Shown piece by piece: positions 10,798 through 19,962 of a DNA stretch of 64,000 nucleotides. Source of the stretch: Bacteroidales bacterium. GTDB lineage: Bacteria; Bacteroidota; Bacteroidia; Bacteroidales; G3-4614. The stretch spans positions 25,645 to 89,644 of the forward strand of contig SUXK01000005.1 in assembly GCA_015061035.1 (NCBI GenBank). Direction: 5' to 3'. A program made the translations under genes and the position numbers. Under the pieces are notes generated by a model. It saw nothing but the letters and a program-made list of their open reading frames with translations. It did not search any database and was not told the DNA's origin. Numbering within the stretch: the stretch's first letter is position 1; the number at the start of each line of letters is the position of its first letter.

Positions 10798-11191
10798 AAA
10801 AGAGGATTACATAAAACAGAATCGCGAGTTCCTTGCAGCAAAGCGAGAGGAGGAGGGCGTAAAAGAGATTTCGCTCGGCGTGTTGCGTAAAATCATAAAG
10901 AGTGGCAAGAGTAATGTGCGCCCACGACAAGGCAATGTAGTAACCGTACACTACAAAGGAACACTAATCAACGGCAAAGAGTTTGACAACAGTTACAAAC
11001 GCTCTTGCCCTGAGGCTTTCAGAGTGCGTGACCTGATAGTAGGCTTTCAAGTAGCCCTGACACAAATGACCATAGGCGACCACTGGATAGTATATATACC
11101 CTGCGAACAAGGCTACGGAATGCGTAGTACAGGCAACATACCCGGAGGCTCAACCCTTGTGTTTGAAATAGAGTTGTTGGGGGTGAATTAG
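10790..11191 (+). CDS. FKBP-type peptidyl-prolyl cis-trans isomerase
   Basis: VTVHYKGTLINGKEFDNS, LIVGFQVAL, GYG, IPGGSTLVFEIELL. Confidence 0.95.
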   Translation: MAKKEDYIKQNREFLAAKREEEGVKEISLGVLRKIIKSGKSNVRPRQGNVVTVHYKGTLINGKEFDNSYKRSCPEAFRVRDLIVGFQVALTQMTIGDHWIVYIPCEQGYGMRSTGNIPGGSTLVFEIELLGVN

Positions 11192-11402
11192 TTGTTCTTA
11201 GCCACCTTAAAGGTCTTAAAGGCTTAATAAACAAAGGTTTGCATTTTCGTGCAAACCTTTGTTATCTCTAATTAGTCCAATTAGCCTAATTAGTCCAATA
11301 ATAAAACTTAATTATCCTATTTATCTTTAAACTCTCCCCCTCATTTTAGGGGGAGTACCCGCAGGGGGGGTAGGGGTAATAAAATAAGAGCATCAAAAGC
11401 AA

Positions 11403-11428
11403 GTAGGGACGTGGCCTGCCACGTCCGC
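11403..11428 (+). repeat. GTAG-type REP palindrome (reference copy)
   Basis: GTAG GGACGTGGC CT GCCACGTCC GC; further copies at 11861, 12236, 12284, 19222, 19672, 19839 (+) and 57038 (-). Confidence 0.85.
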
Positions 11429-11501
11429 CAACAAAGGTTTCAACCTTTGTTATATCCAATTAATTATTTTACAAACTTTTTGACCGCAAAAAGTTACTTG
11501 C

Positions 11502-11592
11502 CCTCCGTCGTGCAGGGCACTGCACTCCCCATTTTAAGGTACAAATTGACATTTAGTCAATTTTAATTACAATGTAATTACCTAAAAATGCC
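11502..11592. mobile_element. 91-bp structured mini-element, copy 1 (inserted at the start of the ~200-bp module)
   Basis: Identical to 12296-12386 and 19234-19324; absent from the equivalent sites at 11959-11966 and 19422-19429. Confidence 0.7.
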
Positions 11593-12295
11593 CGCCACCC
11601 GTATAAAACAGTCATTCGTTTTTTTGTTCGGGAGTAAACATCCCTCAGTCAAAACTCATTTGCCGTTCCAACCTTTCCAAAGTTTGCGAGGTGTTGCGGA
11701 ACTCGCTTCGCTCAAACAGTCCTCACACTATATCCCGCAAACTTCGGGGTTTCCACTCTGTTTTATAATGGTGCGGTCTTATTTTAAAGTAACTCTCCCC
11801 CTCATTTTAGGGGGAGTACCCGCAGGGGGTAGGGGTAATAAAATAAGAGCCTCCCCAGTAGTAGGGACGTGGCCTGCCACGTCCGCAAACAACAAAGGTT
11901 TCAACCTTTGTTATATCCAATTAATTATTTTACAAACTTTTTGACCGCAAAAAGTTACAAAAACTCCCGCCACCCGTATAAAACAGTCATTCGTTTTTTT
12001 GTTCGGGAGTAAACATCCCTCAGTCAAAACTCATTTGCCGTTCCAACCTTTCCAAAGTTTGCGAGGTGTTGCGGAACTCGCTTCGCTCAAACAGTCCTCA
12101 CACTATATCCCGCAAACTTCGGGGTTTCCACTCTGTTTTATAATGGTGCGGTCTTATTTTAAAGTAACTCTCCCCCTCATTTTAGGGGGAGTACCCGCAG
12201 GGGGTAGGGGTAATAAAATAAGAGCCACCCCAGTAGTAGGGACGTGGCAAGCCACGTCCGTAAGAAAAAAGTATCTCAAGGCAGTAGGGACGTGG

Positions 12296-12386
12296 CCTCC
12301 GTCGTGCAGGGCACTGCACTCCCCATTTTAAGGTACAAATTGACATTTAGTCAATTTTAATTACAATGTAATTACCTAAAAATGCC
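12296..12386. mobile_element. 91-bp structured mini-element, copy 2 (in the loop of a REP)
   Basis: GTAGGGACGTG-GCCT-[85 bp]-GCCT-GCCACGTCCGC; the empty site is seen at 11403 and 11861. Confidence 0.75.
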
Positions 12387-12458
12387 TGCCACGTCCGCTA
12401 ACAAAGGTCCTTTGCTATATCTAATTAGCCTAATTGGACTAATTAGCCTAATTAGAAC

Positions 12459-12489
12459 AAAAAAATGGATTGCTGAAGCAACCCATTTT
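12459..12489 (-). terminator. Intrinsic terminator downstream of the 1919-aa gene
   Basis: Minus strand AAAATGGGTTGC TTCA GCAATCCATTTTTTT. Confidence 0.7.
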
Positions 12490-12610
12490 AACTAACAAAT
12501 CTGCGAGTAAGCGAGGGCAAAATAAGTTTACTTAAACTTTGCCGAGCGTGAGCAGATTCAACAAACGTATGTTTGTTAACTAACTTAAACTTGCGTTGCA
12601 AGTTTAATTT

Positions 12611-15600
12611 CTACTCACACACCGCTCTAACAGGATAACCTTCACAGCGATATTCAAAACTTGCACCTAAGTGGGACACAATCCTAAATGTAGTGGCTCT
12701 ATAATTTCCATAATCATAGTAAGAACTTGACCATGTAGATGCAAAGTTATACTCTTCGTGTTTTAGATTACCATCTTCGTAGTGACCATTAACTGGGACA
12801 AAAATTGAGTTTCCATTTATTTCGCTTGTTATAGTCCAACCATTTACTCCATTTAATGTAGTTTTTGTAAATATACAATTCTCTTCCATCTCTTCTATCT
12901 CAGCTTCGGTAGGCATACGCCAAGTGCCACCCCAATTTGCTCTTGCAGCATCATCTTCTATGTCAAGAATAGTTTTATTATCCACTGTGCCATATTGAGA
13001 ATCAGAGCAATATTTAGTCATTGAATCATATGTGCCATTACACCATTTGTAGGTTTCCCAGTTATATATCTCTTTTGTCTCAGTCTCGCCCCATGCAAAG
13101 TAATCGCCTTCCTCTTCAGCTTTAGTAGCACCTACATTACAAGTGGCCCATTTAACGCTCAAACCAAGATCCACATAAACATGACCATTCTCGGTAGTCT
13201 GTTCAAAATTGGCAACAAAATTGCTATTTGTTGTTACTGTTCCGGTGTAGGTACTTGAGGTGCTTACAACGGTGCCATTTAATGTCCAATTCTTAAAGTT
13301 GTAACCGCTCTTTGGAGTTGCTACTAAGGTTATAGACTCGCCCTTAGCAACTATTGAATATCTCGAATTTACTACTCCTCCCTCTGTTGCCGATACAGTT
13401 AATGATACTGTTTCTGAATCTAAAACGGCACGTATAGGAAGTCCTTTATATCGAAGAGAAGATTGTACCTCCCTCGTGCCGGTTCCTTTCACATACATAG
13501 ATTTAGCATATTGATTATCTTCAGAGTCGATTGAACTTGTCCAAATTTGAGTGATATATTGCTTTGGTTGAAGCATAGAACCTTGAGTATAACCTGTAGC
13601 AGGAATAAATATTTTTGCTCCATTTATATTACTTGTTACATGGTGTCCGCTCGCTCCTAAATTACTAACGGATACAGTTTGACTCCATGTGCAATAATCT
13701 ATCAATTCTTGTACCTCTTCTTCTGTTGGCATACGCCAATTACCTCCCATATAAACATTTGCGACATCTGCAGACAGTGGCAAAGTGGCAGGATTATTTA
13801 CATAGGTATAGTTTTCTGCCGTATAACTATCTTTTGAAGATGTCTCTCCCCAAGCAACATAACCACCTAACTCATCAGACTCTTCTGCTCCTACATTGCA
13901 AGTTGCCCATTTTGTACCACTTGGCAATCCTAAATCAACGTATTCAAACCCATTGTGAGCACCAACAATATCTAATTTCTCAAATTTGGCAGTAAATTTA
14001 CGGTTTTCATAAATGTATAAATTCCAAACCTGATCACTATCATCTCCTACCATTACACCATTTTCTTCCCATCCAATAAACTTATATCCGGGATCAGGAG
14101 TTGCCGTTAAGGTTACTTTCCAAGCATAGTCAACTATGGTTGATGAAGTTTGTGCTGTTCCTCCCTCTGTTGAAGATACCGTTACAGTAAATTTTTTAGG
14201 TTTGAAGCATGCTTCAAAAGTGGTATTTTGAATTACAGTTGCCACATACGGATTATCTGTTGATAAAACATCATCACCCATTAAATCTTTCCAGTATTTA
14301 AACTCATAACCCTCATTTGGAGTAGCAGTTAATATTACAGTACCACCTTGCTCAACACTGGTGGCAGATGCAGTTGCACTTCCGTCAGTTGATGCAGCCC
14401 ATACTGTAACGGTACATATTATAGGTTCATTATCCTCCCCTGAACTCTCTTCCTCTTCAAAGTTAGCTACAAACTCGCTGTTTTTAGTTACGGTAGTAGT
14501 ATATGGATTGTCAGTTGAAACAACCTCTCCACCCAATGTCCAGTTTTTAAATACATATCCTTCATCGGGCGTTGCGGTTAAGATTACACTACTACTATAA
14601 GCAATACTTTCGGCAGATGCAGTTGCACTACCACCAGTAGTTGAAGATACTGAAACTGTGTAAGTTATCTTCTCAAAGCTGGCAAGGTATTCGCTGCTTT
14701 TAGTTACGGTAACAGTGTATGGGTTTTCGGTTGAAACAAGCACTCCATCCAAACTCCAACCTCCAAAGTTGTAACCTTCGTTTGCAGTTGCAGTCAAAGT
14801 TACAGTGCTACCGTCCTCAACACTCTCGGCAGATGCTGAGGCTGTTCCTCCTTCTGTTGCTGATACTGATACTGTAAAAGTCTGTTTCTCTCCGAAAACT
14901 GCACGGACAGATTGCCCTAACTCACGGCTCTGTTGGAACCATTGTATGCCGCCCGAATTGAAGCTTATATTGTGAGCAGTGTAGTCGCCGTCGTTCGAAC
15001 TTGACCATAAGTAACCTTTTGTATCGGCATATACGAGTCTGTTCTGGACGATAAGGCCCGCTGCAGGAAGGAAAATGCTGTTGCCATTCTTCTTACTTGT
15101 TACTTTATATCCGTTTACTTCATTCTGTGTAGTCCACTCCCAAGTACAGTTATCGGTGTCCATTAATTCTTCTTGCTCTGCTTTTGTGGGCATGCGCCAA
15201 CTGCCTCCCCAATTTACTCGTGCTGCATCGTCTGAAAGTTCAAGCATGGTTTTATTATCTACTATACCATATTCTGAATTTGTGCAGTATTTCGTCATTG
15301 AGTCAGCTGTGCCATTACACCATTTATAGTTACTCTCATCGTAAGTTGCTTTTGTCTCAGTCTCGCCCCAAGCAAAGTAACTGCCATACTCTTCGGGAGT
15401 AGTAGCACCCACGTTGCAAGTTGCCCATTTTATGCCAGAGGGCAAACCAAGGTCAACATACTCGTGTCCATTATGTAACTCACCTGATTGGTTCTCTTCC
15501 GCTTCAAAGTTAGCCACAAACTCGCTGTTTGCATTTACGGTAGCAGTGTATGGGTTTTCAGTTGAAACAACCTCTCCACCCAATGTCCAATTCTTGAACA

Positions 15601-18370
15601 CGTAACCGCTATTTGCTGTTGCAGTTAAAGTAACACTACCACCTTGCTCAACTTCTAAAGCAGATGCTGAGGCTGTTCCTCCTTCTGTTGCAGATACTGA
15701 TACTGTAAAAGTCTGTTTCTCTCCGAAAACTGCACGGACAGATTGCCCGTAATTGCGTTGGCTGTAGTCACAGTTCACGCTTACCGAAGTGAACATCAAG
15801 CAGTAGGCGTAGGAGGTAGAGCCCGGATAGGCAGAACTCGACCAATAGTAACCGCTATTGGCTGCGCCAGGGAGAAAGATTGAGTTACCATTCTTTTTAC
15901 TTGTTACTTTATATCCGCTTACTCCGTTTTGGGTGGTCCAAGTCCAAGTACAGTTATCGGTGTCCATTAATTCTTCTTGCTCTGCTTTTGTTGGCATACG
16001 CCAATTTCCTCCCCAATTTACATTAGCGGCATCTGCCGATAAGGGTAATACTTCGGGGTTATCATTATATGTGTATTCTGTTGCTAACCAACTCTGTGGA
16101 GTGGTTTCACCCCAAGCATAATTATTTCCATACTCTTCGGGAGCAGTGGCTCCAACGTTGCAAGTTGCCCATTTTAATCCACTTGGCAAACCAAGGTCAA
16201 CATACTCGTGTCCATTATGTAACTCACCTGATTGGTTCTCTTCCGCTTCAAAGTTAGCCACAAACTCGCTGTTTGCTGTAATGGTTGCTATAAATGGGTT
16301 AGAGACACTAACCACATTGTTATTCAATGTCCAATTTACAAATCTGTAACCGGTTTCAGGAGTAGCAGTTAAGATAACACTACCACCCTCCTCAACACTC
16401 TCGGCAGAAGTTGTAACAGTTCCACCTTGGGTTGCTGATACTGATACTGTGTAAGTTGGTATTGGCTCAGGCTCTTCTCCGCCTACTTGCTCCAATACCC
16501 AAGTTGCTCTTAAATCGGCAGGAGCATCGCAGAATGGGTAATATACTCCATTTACATCCTCAACTTTAAAATAGTTTGCTCCATTTTTAATATAGTATGT
16601 TCCGTCAGGGTTATCTATAAAGGTTAACTCTGTTCCTGTTGTCAAAGCATCAACATTCCATTGTTGGCAATAGATGTAGTAACCGCTCTTGCTCTTTAAA
16701 TAGTAGTTTGTACCTGATGCCTCAAATACAAATATCTGGTTATTATTTTCGGCGTATGCTACACAGTTTACTCCTCCGTTTGTTCCTCCTACGTGAGTAA
16801 AATTGTTGCTGACATTTAGGTAGTTTCCACTCTCTACGTGCTTAATGCGATACTCTTTAGTTAATGATATACCGCTCTCAGTTGTTCTCTCTTCAAAGTT
16901 AGCCACAAACTCAGTATTGGCAGTAATAGTAGCAACAAATATATTTTCGGTGGAAACCTCACTACCATTAACTGTCCAGTTAACAAATCTGTAACCCGAC
17001 TCAGGAGTAGCAAACAGTGTTGCACTACCACCATGAGCCATACTGTTTACCGAAGTAGATGCTGTTCCGCCCTCTGTTGCCGAAACAGATACGGTATAGG
17101 TTGGCAACGGGGTAGCCTCTTCCAATACCCAAGTTGCTTTCTCTCCTTCGGTAGTATTACAGAATGGGTAGTAGTATCCATTTAGCTCATCAACTGCAAA
17201 ATATGACTCTCCAAACATAATGTCGTATGTCTCATCATCATTCTTTATAAACGACAAATCAACACCCGTAGTTTGAGCATCAACAATCCATTGTTGGCAA
17301 TAGATGTAGTAACCGCTATTGGTTATAACTTTGAATTTATCACCCGATAACTCAAACTTAAAAATTTGGTCGGCATCCTGAGCGTAAGCAGTACAGTTTA
17401 CACCACCAAAAGAGCCTGTATAGTGGAAGTCGTAGTTTACAGCATTTAGATAAAGGTTACTCTCAACATTTTTAATTCTGTAATACTTCTCTGTTGAGAT
17501 ACCATTATACTCCCTCTCAAATTTAATACTATCTATCTCAGCAATAGGTCTGCTGTATATTACATCATCCTCTTTAAATATCGAAACCTTTGTTTGAGTA
17601 TTTCCTCCATCTATATTGCATACAGCACGTACCGATGCTCCTGAACAACGAGTAAGATTTCCTGTTGAAGTTGGGGCATAAGCATTAATGTAGTATAGAG
17701 CATTTGCACTATTGTTAATAATACTTCGTATTGAGTTTGTCCAATAATAAGCATACTCTTGGTTGCTTACATACCCATCACCAATAGCGCTTGTAGCAGG
17801 AAGAAATATAGAGTTCCCATTTACGGTACTTGTAACTTTATAACCGCTTATTCCGTTTTGAGTTACCCAAGTCCAATTACAATTATTGATAAGTTCAGTC
17901 ATCTCCTCTTCTGTTGGTATTCGCCAACTTCCGCCCCAATTTATATAAGCAGCATCGTCTGTCATTTCAAGTTCAGTCAATCCATCGGGAGCATTGCTGT
18001 ACGAATAACCTGTGGCATATTTTGTAATTCTTGAACCACTACCATCGCAATATTTGTATGTAGTCCAATCGTAAATTGTATTTGGCTCTGTCTCACCCCA
18101 AGCAAAGTAATCGCCAAACCCTTCAGGGGTTGTAGCACCTACGTTGCAAGTAGCCCACTTTGTACCACTTGGCAAACCAAGATCAACAAACTCATGTCCG
18201 TTATGTACAGAGGAAGTAACTTTTGCAAATCCTACACTATCAACATCGGTTAAAGGTACGCTATATATTACCTCACCACCTTTGTGAACTTTTATCTTTG
18301 TCTGTGCGTATGCACCGCCAATTACTATGGCTGATATTGCAAATATTAATGTTATTATTCTTGTTTTCAT
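12611..18370 (-). CDS. 1919-aa multidomain secreted/surface protein: 5 VDLGL..KWATCNVGA (DUF1566/Fib_succ_major-like, CLec-fold) domains, 8 InlB B-repeat-like domains, 2 beta-trefoil-like domains
   Basis: Signal peptide ending AYAQ; five H.G.E.VDLGL...WATCNVGA...WRMPT...SIFLP...WSSS...VRAV units; eight TVSVSATEGG...TATP..GY.F.NW...FVANFE units; two YRIK.VES..YLN...YIYCQQW...ATWVLE units. Confidence 0.88.
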   Translation of the reverse strand: MKTRIITLIFAISAIVIGGAYAQTKIKVHKGGEVIYSVPLTDVDSVGFAKVTSSVHNGHEFVDLGLPSGTKWATCNVGATTPEGFGDYFAWGETEPNTIYDWTTYKYCDGSGSRITKYATGYSYSNAPDGLTELEMTDDAAYINWGGSWRIPTEEEMTELINNCNWTWVTQNGISGYKVTSTVNGNSIFLPATSAIGDGYVSNQEYAYYWTNSIRSIINNSANALYYINAYAPTSTGNLTRCSGASVRAVCNIDGGNTQTKVSIFKEDDVIYSRPIAEIDSIKFEREYNGISTEKYYRIKNVESNLYLNAVNYDFHYTGSFGGVNCTAYAQDADQIFKFELSGDKFKVITNSGYYIYCQQWIVDAQTTGVDLSFIKNDDETYDIMFGESYFAVDELNGYYYPFCNTTEGEKATWVLEEATPLPTYTVSVSATEGGTASTSVNSMAHGGSATLFATPESGYRFVNWTVNGSEVSTENIFVATITANTEFVANFEERTTESGISLTKEYRIKHVESGNYLNVSNNFTHVGGTNGGVNCVAYAENNNQIFVFEASGTNYYLKSKSGYYIYCQQWNVDALTTGTELTFIDNPDGTYYIKNGANYFKVEDVNGVYYPFCDAPADLRATWVLEQVGGEEPEPIPTYTVSVSATQGGTVTTSAESVEEGGSVILTATPETGYRFVNWTLNNNVVSVSNPFIATITANSEFVANFEAEENQSGELHNGHEYVDLGLPSGLKWATCNVGATAPEEYGNNYAWGETTPQSWLATEYTYNDNPEVLPLSADAANVNWGGNWRMPTKAEQEELMDTDNCTWTWTTQNGVSGYKVTSKKNGNSIFLPGAANSGYYWSSSAYPGSTSYAYCLMFTSVSVNCDYSQRNYGQSVRAVFGEKQTFTVSVSATEGGTASASALEVEQGGSVTLTATANSGYVFKNWTLGGEVVSTENPYTATVNANSEFVANFEAEENQSGELHNGHEYVDLGLPSGIKWATCNVGATTPEEYGSYFAWGETETKATYDESNYKWCNGTADSMTKYCTNSEYGIVDNKTMLELSDDAARVNWGGSWRMPTKAEQEELMDTDNCTWEWTTQNEVNGYKVTSKKNGNSIFLPAAGLIVQNRLVYADTKGYLWSSSNDGDYTAHNISFNSGGIQWFQQSRELGQSVRAVFGEKQTFTVSVSATEGGTASASAESVEDGSTVTLTATANEGYNFGGWSLDGVLVSTENPYTVTVTKSSEYLASFEKITYTVSVSSTTGGSATASAESIAYSSSVILTATPDEGYVFKNWTLGGEVVSTDNPYTTTVTKNSEFVANFEEEESSGEDNEPIICTVTVWAASTDGSATASATSVEQGGTVILTATPNEGYEFKYWKDLMGDDVLSTDNPYVATVIQNTTFEACFKPKKFTVTVSSTEGGTAQTSSTIVDYAWKVTLTATPDPGYKFIGWEENGVMVGDDSDQVWNLYIYENRKFTAKFEKLDIVGAHNGFEYVDLGLPSGTKWATCNVGAEESDELGGYVAWGETSSKDSYTAENYTYVNNPATLPLSADVANVYMGGNWRMPTEEEVQELIDYCTWSQTVSVSNLGASGHHVTSNINGAKIFIPATGYTQGSMLQPKQYITQIWTSSIDSEDNQYAKSMYVKGTGTREVQSSLRYKGLPIRAVLDSETVSLTVSATEGGVVNSRYSIVAKGESITLVATPKSGYNFKNWTLNGTVVSTSSTYTGTVTTNSNFVANFEQTTENGHVYVDLGLSVKWATCNVGATKAEEEGDYFAWGETETKEIYNWETYKWCNGTYDSMTKYCSDSQYGTVDNKTILDIEDDAARANWGGTWRMPTEAEIEEMEENCIFTKTTLNGVNGWTITSEINGNSIFVPVNGHYEDGNLKHEEYNFASTWSSSYYDYGNYRATTFRIVSHLGASFEYRCEGYPVRAVCE

Positions 18371-18388
18371 TTCAAAAAATAAATTTTT

Positions 18389-18445
18389 TAATTAGGATTA
18401 AAAAACATTCCTCATTCCTAACTCCTCACTCCTCATTCCTAATTA
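18389..18445. repeat. Heptamer (TTCCTCA/TTCCTAA) tandem repeat between the T9SS gene and the adhesin
   Basis: ttcctcattcctaactcctcactcctcattcctaatt, related to 236-288. Confidence 0.65.
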
Positions 18446-18945
18446 ATTATAATCTTCTTAGTTTCTATCTCTCCATTTGATTGAACTGCAACCACATAAA
18501 TACCAGAGGGGTAGTTGCTAACATCAAGAGTTGCTACCTCAGTGTTGGGAGTTTGGTACTGCATCAACACACCTTGCATATTGTAAAGTTGCACTTGATT
18601 AATTACTTCGGGTGAGGTAACTTTAACCTCTCCTGCCGATGCAATATAGATTATCTCAACCTCTGTCACCTCAACCTCGCTCTCTTCAATAGCGGTGATA
18701 TCGGTATCTCCAAAGGTGATAACCTCAATGTTCTCTATTGCCATAGGCACAATTACGCCCGACATAGTGATGTTAACCTCATCCTCCGAAGGGAAGGTGA
18801 TTTTATCAATCTCATCAATGTTGATTGATTGAAACGCACCCTCTGAGGTTAAGAACACATTCATATAGTCCGTTGCCGAAACACCCATAAATGGGATGAA
18901 TGTGAATAGCAATGCTATAAAACGATTAATAAAATTCTCTCTCAT
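18439..18945 (-). CDS. Small T9SS type A sorting domain protein
   Basis: Signal peptide; short N-domain with EIDKITF/NIEVITF; CTD VQLYNMQGVLM...LDVSNYPSGIYVVAV...TKKIIIN. Confidence 0.9.
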   Translation of the reverse strand: MRENFINRFIALLFTFIPFMGVSATDYMNVFLTSEGAFQSINIDEIDKITFPSEDEVNITMSGVIVPMAIENIEVITFGDTDITAIEESEVEVTEVEIIYIASAGEVKVTSPEVINQVQLYNMQGVLMQYQTPNTEVATLDVSNYPSGIYVVAVQSNGEIETKKIIIN

Positions 18946-19033
18946 ATATCTTAAATTTATATAATTTCTATGCTATAAAGTGCCATTTTGTAGAGTAATA
19001 GATATAACTTATGCAAAATACTCTTTAATATTG

Positions 19034-19118: not shown

Positions 19119-19962
19119 TCCAATAAAAACTTAGTTATCCTAATTATCTTCAAACTCTCCCCCTCATTTAGGGGGAGTACCCGCAGGGGGTAGGGGTAAT
19201 AAAATAAGAGCCTCCCCAGTAGTAGGGACGTGTCCTCCGTCGTGCAGGGCACTGCACTCCCCATTTTAAGGTACAAATTGACATTTAGTCAATTTTAATT
19301 ACAATGTAATTACCTAAAAATGCCTGCCACGTCCGCAAACAACAAAGGTTTGCACGAAAAATGCAAACCTTTGTTATATGTAATTAATTATTTTATAAAC
19401 TTTTTGACCGCAAAAAGTTACAAAAACTCCCGCCACCCGTATAAAACAGTCATTCGTTTTTTTGTTCGGGAGTAAACATCCCTCAGTCAAAACTCATTTG
19501 CCGTTCCAACCTTTCCAAAGTTTGCGAGGTGTTGCGGAACTCGCTTCGCTCAAACAGTCCTCACACTATATCCCGCAAACTTCGGGGTTTCCACTCTGTT
19601 TTATAATGGTGCGGTCTTATTTTAAAGTTACTTTCCCCGTCTGAAAGACAGGAAACGAGCCCCCCCACGCAGTAGGGACGTGACCTGTCACGTCCGCCAA
19701 CAAAGGTTTGCGAACCTTTGCTATATCCAATTAGTCCAATAAAAACTTAGTTATCCTAATTATCTTCAAACTCTCCCCCTCATTTTAGGGGGAGTACCCG
19801 CAGGGGGTAGGGGTAATAAAATAAGAGCCTCCCAAGCAGTAGGGACGTGGCAAGCCACGTCCGCCAACAACAAAGGTTTGCATTCGTGCAAACCTTTGTT
19901 ATCTCTAATTAGTCCAATTAGCCTAATAATAAATCTTAGTTATCTTAGTTCTAAAAACTAAC
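19119..19962. repeat. Mosaic palindromic repeat array 2
   Basis: Same modules and orientation as array 1: REPs at 19222, 19672, 19839; ~200-bp module 19429-19628; CTCCCCCT module at 19154 and 19770. Confidence 0.9.
19234..19324. mobile_element. 91-bp structured mini-element, copy 3 (in the loop of a REP)
   Basis: GTAGGGACGTG-TCCT-[insert]-GCCT-GCCACGTCCGC. Confidence 0.75.

Follow-up and report, generated by a model that had tools for sequence, protein, structure and literature searches.

The stretch of DNA considered here, a window of 64,000 nucleotides from a Bacteroidales bacterium (GenBank assembly GCA_015061035.1, contig SUXK01000005.1, positions 25,645 to 89,644), carries on its minus strand, at 12611..18370, a gene whose open reading frame (ORF), translation, and Pfam matches define a protein of 1919 amino acids. 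The protein comprises a signal peptide, five heads of the Lcl_C type, eight Flg_new_2 stalk modules, and two beta-trefoil-like modules. Two of the heads, numbers 2 and 3, have C-terminal ends that resemble the template repeat (TR) of a diversity-generating retroelement (DGR) located elsewhere in the same genome, and the origin and present state of these two heads are the subject of this work. The assembly, designated G000, consists of 1.92 Mb in 16 contigs (given C-numbers below) and is 85.72% complete; with 11 congeners (among them G001, G004, G007, G008, and G009) it forms the set of 12 genus genomes used for comparison.

The five heads have in common the pattern H.[YF]VDLGL..KWATCNVGA ... 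W[ST][SN]S ... [VI]RAV. They lie, all on the minus strand, at 17615..18208 (head 1, residues 55-252), 15722..16222 (head 2, residues 717-883), 14891..15478 (head 3, residues 965-1160), 13418..13960 (head 4, residues 1471-1651), and 12614..13192 (head 5, residues 1727-1919), in agreement with the positions given in a first-pass annotation of this DNA. The C-terminal windows of heads 2 and 3 are the putative relict variable repeats (VRs) discussed below; head 1 has no TR-related window, head 4 differs as a whole between species, and head 5, which is the C-terminal one and is unrelated to the TR, ends in VRAVCE*, as do live DGR targets. In Pfam searches of the whole protein, Lcl_C (PF07603, formerly DUF1566) scores 74 bits against a cut-off of 34.9 in three stretches, and there is a weak similarity to Fib_succ_major; a six-frame profile search of the genome matches four of the five heads to Lcl_C, one of them above the cut-off. 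Flg_new_2 (PF18998, 'divergent InlB B-repeat') scores 328.8 bits against a cut-off of 23.6 in eight stretches, which confirms the InlB-like stalk repeats of the first-pass annotation. The beta-trefoil-like modules are two repeats of about 130 residues on the minus strand at 16481..17503 (limits approximate), each followed by a stalk repeat; the repetition is visible in the translation, and the similarity to ricin-B and fascin is weak and below the Pfam cut-offs (RicinB_lectin_2, 19.1 bits, cut-off 25.6; Fascin, 19.4 bits, cut-off 23.1). The product would be a secreted, multivalent, lectin-like surface protein in which InlB B-repeat stalks separate five heads of C-type lectin (CLec) fold and the two beta-trefoil-like modules, and it is predicted to bind carbohydrates or other surface ligands.

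The window itself contains no reverse transcriptase (RT), as had been remarked before; the single RVT_1 match in the whole assembly (46.1 bits) falls on contig C5. There, at positions 180297-185210 of the minus strand and outside the window, lies a DGR cassette made up of a small gene for a protein with a type IX secretion system (T9SS) tail, a target gene with a VR (VR0), a MutS_I-like ORF, the TR, and the RT. The RT (C5:181493-180297, minus strand, 384 amino acids) contains YVDD and IGNLTSQ, which we take to be marks of DGR RTs. The TR (C5:181693-181502, minus strand) is an Asn-rich sequence of 192 nucleotides, FLPAAGYRNNSNLNNAGSNGNYWSSSLNTSNSSNAYNLNFNSSNVDWNNNNRYYGQSVRAVCE, whose 3' end is the anchor GGGCAATCTGTCCGTGC; the search of the genome for a predicted anchor at a template near a DGR RT, which the first-pass annotation had proposed, thus succeeded. 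The target gene is an open frame of 678 codons (671 amino acids from its ATG) with an N-terminus paralogous to that of the five-headed protein. The accessory ORF encodes 187 amino acids with a weak similarity to MutS domain I (E 0.0064, below the cut-off), and no avd-like ORF is visible between the target and the RT. BLAST finds three full-length, gap-free copies of the TR in the assembly: VR0, which adjoins the TR (C5:182768-182577, minus strand), VR1, about 17 kb away (C5:164146-163955, minus strand), and VR2, on another contig (C2:34699-34890). Mismatches fall at TR adenines in 20 of 20, 23 of 24, and 22 of 23 cases, respectively. Each VR closes its gene (...VRAVCE*) and is followed by a conserved flank with a hairpin, GCATAACTCCGC...GCGGAGTTATGC, that folds at -19.5 to -27.8 kcal/mol. 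The system corresponds to the classical multi-target DGRs of the DUF1566 class that carry an MSL-type accessory gene and are catalogued in the sections of the survey by Wu et al. 2018 (PMC5758913) drawn on here. (The location of a complete three-target DGR in the genome goes beyond what the window alone could show.) As a separate observation, G004 and G008 give 23 and 19 BLAST matches, respectively, to the VR-accessory-TR stretch, at about 70-87% identity, which suggests that VR/TR-like sequences are numerous in the genus and fall into several diverged families.

The windows of heads 2 and 3 that correspond to this TR lie on the minus strand at 15724..15860 and 14891..15073, respectively. Both preserve the 17-nucleotide 3' anchor of the TR exactly, and in head 2 the exact match at the TR 3' end extends to 20 nucleotides (TACGGGCAATCTGTCCGTGC). 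When the sequences are aligned codon by codon (an ungapped comparison of head 3 with the TR was partly out of register and was replaced), head 2 differs from the TR at 20 of 42 A sites and at 28 of 114 non-A sites (25%), and head 3 at 28 of 52 A sites and 44 of 131 non-A sites (34%). The non-A mismatches of VR0, VR1, and VR2 number 0/135, 1/135, and 1/135. At the other extreme, head 1 is mismatched at 26 of 52 A sites and 67 of 131 non-A sites, and head 5 at 74 of 134 non-A sites; heads 1, 4, and 5 are saturated relative to the TR, with about 50% mismatch at all sites. Colinearity with the TR is also broken: head 2 is without 11 codons of the TR 5' half, and head 3, whose 5' half has the length of the TR, is without 2 codons of the 3' half. 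In a BLAST search with the TR, head 2 is found at 70.9% identity over 141 nucleotides with 4 gap openings, and head 3 is matched only at a 25-nucleotide 3' anchor. These insertions and deletions count against live targeting, because a single homing event would erase them. In addition, heads 2 and 3 are internal in the ORF, with stalk-coding sequence 3' of each, whereas the live VRs are 3'-terminal, and the hairpin of the live VRs is absent after both heads, where the flanks fold at -8.9 and -8.8 kcal/mol. The 3' flank of head 5 is different again and is also without this hairpin.

A cognate TR for the heads, that is, a sequence that would differ from a head only where the candidate TR has A, was sought on both strands of the whole assembly, and the best candidate for any head has at least 20 non-A mismatches. 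In the same scan VR0 and VR2, used as controls, recover the TR at 0 and 1 non-A mismatches, and for head 2 the sequence that comes closest is the resident TR, at 20 of 38. Neither BLAST of the 12 genus genomes nor 33 loci from five congeners yield a TR-like partner for the windows. Scans of public collections with a 17-mer, a 20-mer, and a 30-mer required exact matches and so say little: the 30-mer and the 20-mer have 0 exact matches in metagenome_contigs, and the 20-mer has three loci in genome_contigs, one of them a chance match in Nitrospirales and two of them records of ruminant-gut Bacteroidales/Muribaculaceae metagenome-assembled genomes. A TR on viral contigs was considered as a candidate and rejected. 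The 17-mer GGGCAATCTGTCCGTGC leads to seven viral loci, all of which are unrelated sequences; the six full-length ones have 60-83 non-A mismatches to either window, and the seventh, which is cut by a contig end, agrees with two of the other loci where they overlap.

The windows are also conserved. The head-2 window is present in six of the 12 genus genomes, at 100, 98, 98, 98, 93, and 92% identity, and nothing else there exceeds 72% (BLAST). The head-3 window is found among the 12 only in G000 and G009, at 96% identity; its seven differences are all nonsynonymous, with no synonymous change, all lie at codon positions 1-2, and six of the seven involve A in one of the two genomes. For comparison, the head-5 window has 2 synonymous and 1 nonsynonymous differences in 64 codons between G000 and G009, and the gene as a whole has 105 synonymous and 110 nonsynonymous differences. 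Contigs from X7, X8, and X9, three further sequencing runs from different studies, span 14918-15075 in head 3 without any difference from the window, and those from X8 and X9 do differ from it elsewhere in the gene. The bin that contains the corresponding part of head 2 (15712-15918) has a low summed depth in these runs and is spanned by none of the listed contigs, so the runs are uninformative on head 2. (As an observation apart, X8 and X10 each contain one contig, of gene-like depth, in which a head-3-like scaffold is joined to a head-2-like end via 140 letters that agree with neither window. With 34 differences in 193 nucleotides in the head-3-like part, 15056-15248, and 26 in 190 in the head-2-like part, 15560-15749, this hybrid is probably another paralogous or allelic head and suggests that other strains have a further variant.)

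That head 2, head 3, or both might nevertheless be live targets of a TR lying outside the assemblies, either in a second DGR within the missing 14% of the genome or on an unbinned phage or plasmid, is a rival explanation to which we give very little weight. It draws on the 85.72% completeness of the assembly, on the seven-to-none ratio of nonsynonymous to synonymous changes in head 3, on the TR-like C-ending codons of both windows (see below), on the retention of the 17-nucleotide anchor of the resident TR in both heads, and on the finding, in the cited sections of PMC5758913, that DGRs act in trans on remote targets. Such targeting is hard to reconcile with a head-2 window that is 92-100% identical across six species, with a head-3 window that is identical in contigs of three independent runs, with an internal position that lacks the 3' hairpin common to the three live VRs, and with the failure to find a cognate TR in G000, in G009 (which is 99% complete), or in any of the 12 genus genomes, the seven viral matches to the anchor being unrelated sequences. 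A bolder variant, in which a TR on a mobile element outside these assemblies continues to rewrite head 3 from time to time, is likewise of low probability. As judged from these comparisons, heads 2 and 3 are not live targets. The earlier proposal that the gene is a remote multi-site DGR target is not supported, in view of the non-A mismatches (28/114 and 44/131), the indels, the missing hairpin, and the conservation of the windows across species and samples; the prediction that went with it, of mismatches specific to template adenines, fails on the counts at A and non-A sites (20/42 against 28/114 in head 2, 28/52 against 44/131 in head 3).

If the two heads are not being rewritten now, the question is whether they ever were. 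As the first-pass annotation had described, the windows that precede GQSVRAV are diverged from each other, unequal in length, and rich in C-ending codons, and codon alignment bears this out. C-ending codons make up 16 of 31 (52%) in the head-2 window (Fisher p 7.6e-6) and 12 of 29 (41%) in the head-3 window (Fisher p 0.0013), against 286 of 1764 (16%) in the rest of the gene. The TR itself has 40%, and heads 1, 4, and 5 show no enrichment (4/33, 4/32, and 5/30). Mismatches to the TR, as counted above, are in excess at adenines in both head 2 (p 0.010) and head 3 (p 0.018). The scaffolds of the heads point in the same direction: that of head 3 is closest to the live VR2 target, with 167 of 180 positions identical (93%) just before the VR boundary and 108 of 184 (59%) inside the VR, and that of head 2 groups with the VR0 and VR1 target domains in an otherwise poorly resolved tree of 21 domains (UFboot 94, SH-aLRT 97). 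These features fit heads 2 and 3 being the closest paralogs of the live target domains, and there is a good chance that their windows were once written by a DGR and are in this sense formerly diversified. The first-pass annotation had offered, as its other possibility, a gene assembled from previously DGR-diversified domains, and the status as closest paralogs, the adenine excess, and the TR-like codon usage all fit that suggestion.

The same data can be read differently. Heads 2 and 3 could be ordinary paralogs that were never diversified by a DGR, their likeness to the TR reflecting common descent and their divergence reflecting fast evolution of a ligand-binding surface. The TR is, after all, itself a copy of such a domain end, and similarity to it forms a gradient over the 21 Lcl_C domains that the assembly contains in total, with non-A mismatches ranging from 0 to 56% and no sharp boundary below the live VRs: the live VRs stand at 0-1%, C4:316570 at 23%, head 2 at 25%, C9:257317 at 33%, head 3 at 34%, and the others at 38-56%. 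Neither does the tree firmly nest head 3 among the targets, and an excess of mismatches at adenines is expected as well if the TR acquired its Asn codons later. What makes this explanation unlikely in our view is that the enrichment in C-ending codons matches that of the TR and is confined to the windows of heads 2 and 3, with neither heads 1, 4, and 5 nor the rest of the gene showing it; that head 3 is 93% identical to a live target in front of the VR boundary and 59% identical behind it, the drop coinciding exactly with the boundary; and that head 2, at the 3' end of the TR, still matches it exactly over 20 nucleotides.

Heads 2 and 3 are further related to each other by identical blocks. 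The first-pass annotation had reported two of these, of 92 and 88/89 nucleotides, and had read them as remains of a recent duplication. Both are reproduced exactly: block A (15441..15532 = 16185..16276) is identical at 92 of 92 positions, and block C (14829..14917 vs 15660..15748) at 88 of 89. A third exact repeat, block B (15140..15187 = 15944..15991, 48 of 48), is absent from that annotation, and it is this block that speaks to how the blocks arose. In the block B region, heads 2 and 3 agree at 55 of 60 positions in G000 (with the exact run of 48 nucleotides) and at only 42 of 60 in G009, and head 3 of G000 agrees with head 3 of G009 at 59 of 60. With head 3 alike in the two genomes and heads 2 and 3 unlike in G009, it follows that head 3 overwrote head 2 in the G000 lineage. 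The block C region behaves similarly, heads 2 and 3 agreeing at 90 of 102 positions in G000 and at 78 of 102 in G009, and head 2 of G007 has a different tract of head-3 sequence. Between the blocks, codon alignment shows that the two heads differ by many synonymous sites and by indels. The identical blocks are thus better explained by short-tract gene conversion between the heads than by a recent duplication, since block B is identical in G000 and not in G009.

Exchange on a larger scale is suggested by head 4, which agrees between G000 and G009 at only 370 of 530 nucleotides (70%), with 32 gap columns, and at about 42-58% across most of its C-terminal half, whereas its flanks are about 98-100% identical. 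G001 has a copy that is 97% identical to the G000 form of head 4. This swap looks like the exchange of a whole head as a cassette. Head 2, too, travels as a cassette, given that the same head is found between quite different flanks in G008 and G004.

A mosaic of this kind raises the concern that it is an assembly artefact, produced by chimeric collapse of repeats in a metagenome-assembled genome. The genome does appear to be a draft, with 16 contigs, repeats abound in the gene, and contigs of the public runs often break inside it. Even so, we regard an artefact as extremely improbable: a full-length ortholog in a congener (G009:C20, 92% identity by BLAST) has exactly the same length, 5760 nucleotides, and the same order of five heads; contigs of independent runs remain colinear with the window through head 3 and the greater part of the stalks; and the exact blocks are at most 92 nucleotides, which is shorter than typical reads.

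Taken together, these comparisons make it quite probable that heads 2 and 3 are relict VR heads, now frozen, that are paralogs of live DGR targets and have been shuffled as cassettes. The five-headed protein belongs to a large family of paralogs in a genus of ruminant-gut Bacteroidales, and some members of this family are live targets of the C5 DGR. Heads 2 and 3 would be descended from DGR-type variable heads, with windows in which partial homology to the TR survives, together with the 3' anchor of the TR and its preference for C-ending codons. They would no longer be rewritten, their sequences having become fixed and conserved. Whole heads would likewise be exchanged as cassettes between genes and species, and patches of heads 2 and 3 have been homogenised by short-tract conversion. 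A more far-reaching possibility, which we put forward only tentatively, is that the genus operates a pipeline that could be summarised as 'evolve, freeze and assemble': the DGR would diversify single, C-terminal Lcl_C heads, and successful variants would escape and be joined into multi-headed adhesins. In such a pipeline, variants would escape the retroelement by losing the 3' hairpin and ceasing to be colinear with the TR, and the stitching would be done by gene conversion and cassette exchange, with the heads keeping distinct, conserved specificities.

Several points weigh against the proposal of frozen relict heads. The incompleteness of the assembly (85.72%) means that a second DGR or TR could be missing from it. 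The population data consist of assembled Logan contigs, which drop rare variants, and they say nothing of head 2, the bin of which is spanned by none of the contigs listed. The differences between G000 and G009 in head 3, which are exclusively nonsynonymous and mostly involve A, are of the kind expected both from positive selection on a binding surface and from a conserved TR that occasionally rewrites the window. The adenine excess does not prove past mutagenesis, since a TR that acquired its Asn codons only once the heads had split from it would produce the same excess. Finally, 13 of the 18 inner branches of the scaffold tree are open and head 3 is unplaced, so that the tree gives weak support only. 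There are also reservations about the fold of the heads, considered next.

Head 2 was modelled with AlphaFold2 from an alignment of nine sequences of paralogs. The model has a mean pLDDT of 79.4, and its VIA-align matches are almost all to CLec or formylglycine-generating enzyme (FGE)-like folds. The best of these are members of the same Pfam family, namely the C-terminal domain of Bdellovibrio Bd2740 (PDB 8oks; Z 7.5, 98 residues aligned) and that of Legionella Lcl (PDB 8q4e; Z 6.7, 101 residues aligned, 22% identity). The variable proteins of known DGRs follow, with Z 6.5 for Mtd (1yu0), Z 6.1 for TvpA (2y3c), and Z 5.7 for TaqVP (5vf4), and invasin/InvE and many animal C-type lectin-like domains are matched as well, the VIA-align matches lying in the range Z 5-7.5. 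Every one of these values is below 8, and the tool warns that such values can reflect a merely common arrangement. Furthermore, a Foldseek search against the PDB gives no match at E <= 0.001, the top match being 8q4e at E 0.41, and a sequence profile run against the PDB gives one unrelated match at E 0.36. The CLec fold that the first-pass annotation had proposed for the heads is thus likely but not proven: the consistent list of CLec and FGE-like folds for the modelled head supports it, and neither the Z values nor the Foldseek result establishes it.

Just upstream of the five-headed gene, at 18439..18945 on the minus strand, is a gene for a protein of 168 amino acids with a C-terminal T9SS sorting domain (Por_Secre_tail, 37.4 bits). 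The 1919-residue protein, which ends in head 5, has no match to Por_Secre_tail, the T9SS type A sorting domain, in the profile search. The 168-residue protein (18439-18945) and the N-terminus of the big protein (18370-18220) both contain a short strand motif, '...V.....IDxIxF', and a pair of the same genes is also present at the DGR locus. The T9SS-tail proteins encoded upstream of the five-headed gene and of the C5 target are 82% identical (139/169), and the large proteins of the two loci have the signal peptide and the first strand motif in common; the two loci are therefore paralogous. As to how the five-headed protein is held on the cell, we infer that the 168-residue, T9SS-sorted protein might be a putative surface anchor partner of the tail-less big protein.

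Between these two genes, at 18396-18441, lies a CT-rich motif (CATTCCTCATTCC...) with 35 BLAST matches in the assembly. The summed contig depth at this motif is 352-2669 in all four runs, compared with about 5-100 in most bins within the gene, and many contigs end there. A dispersed, non-coding repeat family lies on both sides of the two-gene unit, at 11330-12263 and 19153-19911. Its unit is about 375 nucleotides long and is tandemly duplicated at 11584-12258 with 98% identity. The family has 47 BLAST matches in the assembly, several of them beside other Lcl_C loci (for example near C5:163383, C4:262335, and C4:314759), and no Rfam family is found in the repeat or in positions 11000-19000 of the window. 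The repeat may mediate recombination or dispersal of Lcl_C loci. Other multi-headed paralogs are present in the assembly. At C4:160836-163783 there are four Lcl_C domains in frames of 508 and 512 amino acids; three of the four have Pfam matches, one in one frame and two in the other, and heads one and three of this locus are near-identical in the scaffold tree. At C9:256501-257889 two Lcl_C domains lie side by side, one of them within a frame of 519 amino acids.

Because surveys of DGRs count targets by TR-VR matching, they miss heads such as 2 and 3. Should these two heads be frozen DGR products, binding sites made by a DGR would outlive the mutagenesis and be reused as fixed modules in multivalent adhesins of gut Bacteroidales, which would constitute a route from hypermutation to a stable repertoire of ligand-binding proteins. 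Related heads that are live, recently frozen, or long frozen would then offer a natural set for asking which ligands were selected.

The closest known relatives of this system are found among the DGRs that Wu et al. 2018 (PMC5758913) place, in the sections cited here, in the DUF1566/DUF823/Fib_succ_major class ('category d', with CLec2 VRs; Legionella LdtA is an example), for which they describe remote targets and MSL accessory genes. The five-headed protein resembles the category d proteins, as characterized in those sections, in belonging to the same Lcl_C/DUF1566 family and in its weak similarity to Fib_succ_major, and the DGR of the present genome resembles the category d DGRs in its MutS_I-like ORF, its remote targets, and the ...SVRAVCE end motif of its live targets. 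Unlike category d targets as they are described there, the windows of heads 2 and 3 fail the A-only test, are internal, lack the hairpin, and are conserved. The same part of the survey states that MSL-containing DGRs also contain avd, whereas no avd-like ORF is seen in the C5 cassette. On the structural side, the C-terminal domains of Lcl (8q4e) and Bd2740 (8oks), although of the same family and the best matches of the head-2 model, are matched weakly, and the present heads differ from them in having extra insertions and in forming an array of five on B-repeat stalks. Mtd (1yu0), TvpA (2y3c), and TaqVP (5vf4) are live targets with a single VR; the head-2 model has a probable CLec-type fold like theirs, but no sequence relationship with the present heads is detectable.

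A precedent for the state of heads 2 and 3 comes from cyanobacteria, where Vallota-Eastman et al. 2020 (PMC7517822) describe, in the passages relevant here, dispersed CLec paralogs of DGR variable proteins that are not diversified and that show 'remnant TR-VR homology'; in the same passages, the authors read this homology as diversification lost once a variant has been selected. As in those reported paralogs, CLec modules in the present genus duplicate and disperse, some of them with only remnant homology to a TR, and the case described here is, by comparison with that portion of the study, a further example of such paralogs, in Bacteroidales. It differs from the cyanobacterial cases, so far as those passages describe them, in phylum and in CLec subclass, and its modules are combined with stalk repeats and lectin-like modules, where the cyanobacterial ones have kinases or proteases as partners. 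It also differs from the cases presented there in that the relict modules stand in tandem inside one ORF, beside heads unrelated to the TR, and are subject to gene conversion and cassette exchange. The particular feature of the present system is this combination, in which two internal relict heads occupy a single five-headed ORF beside unrelated heads and have had their edges homogenised by gene conversion.

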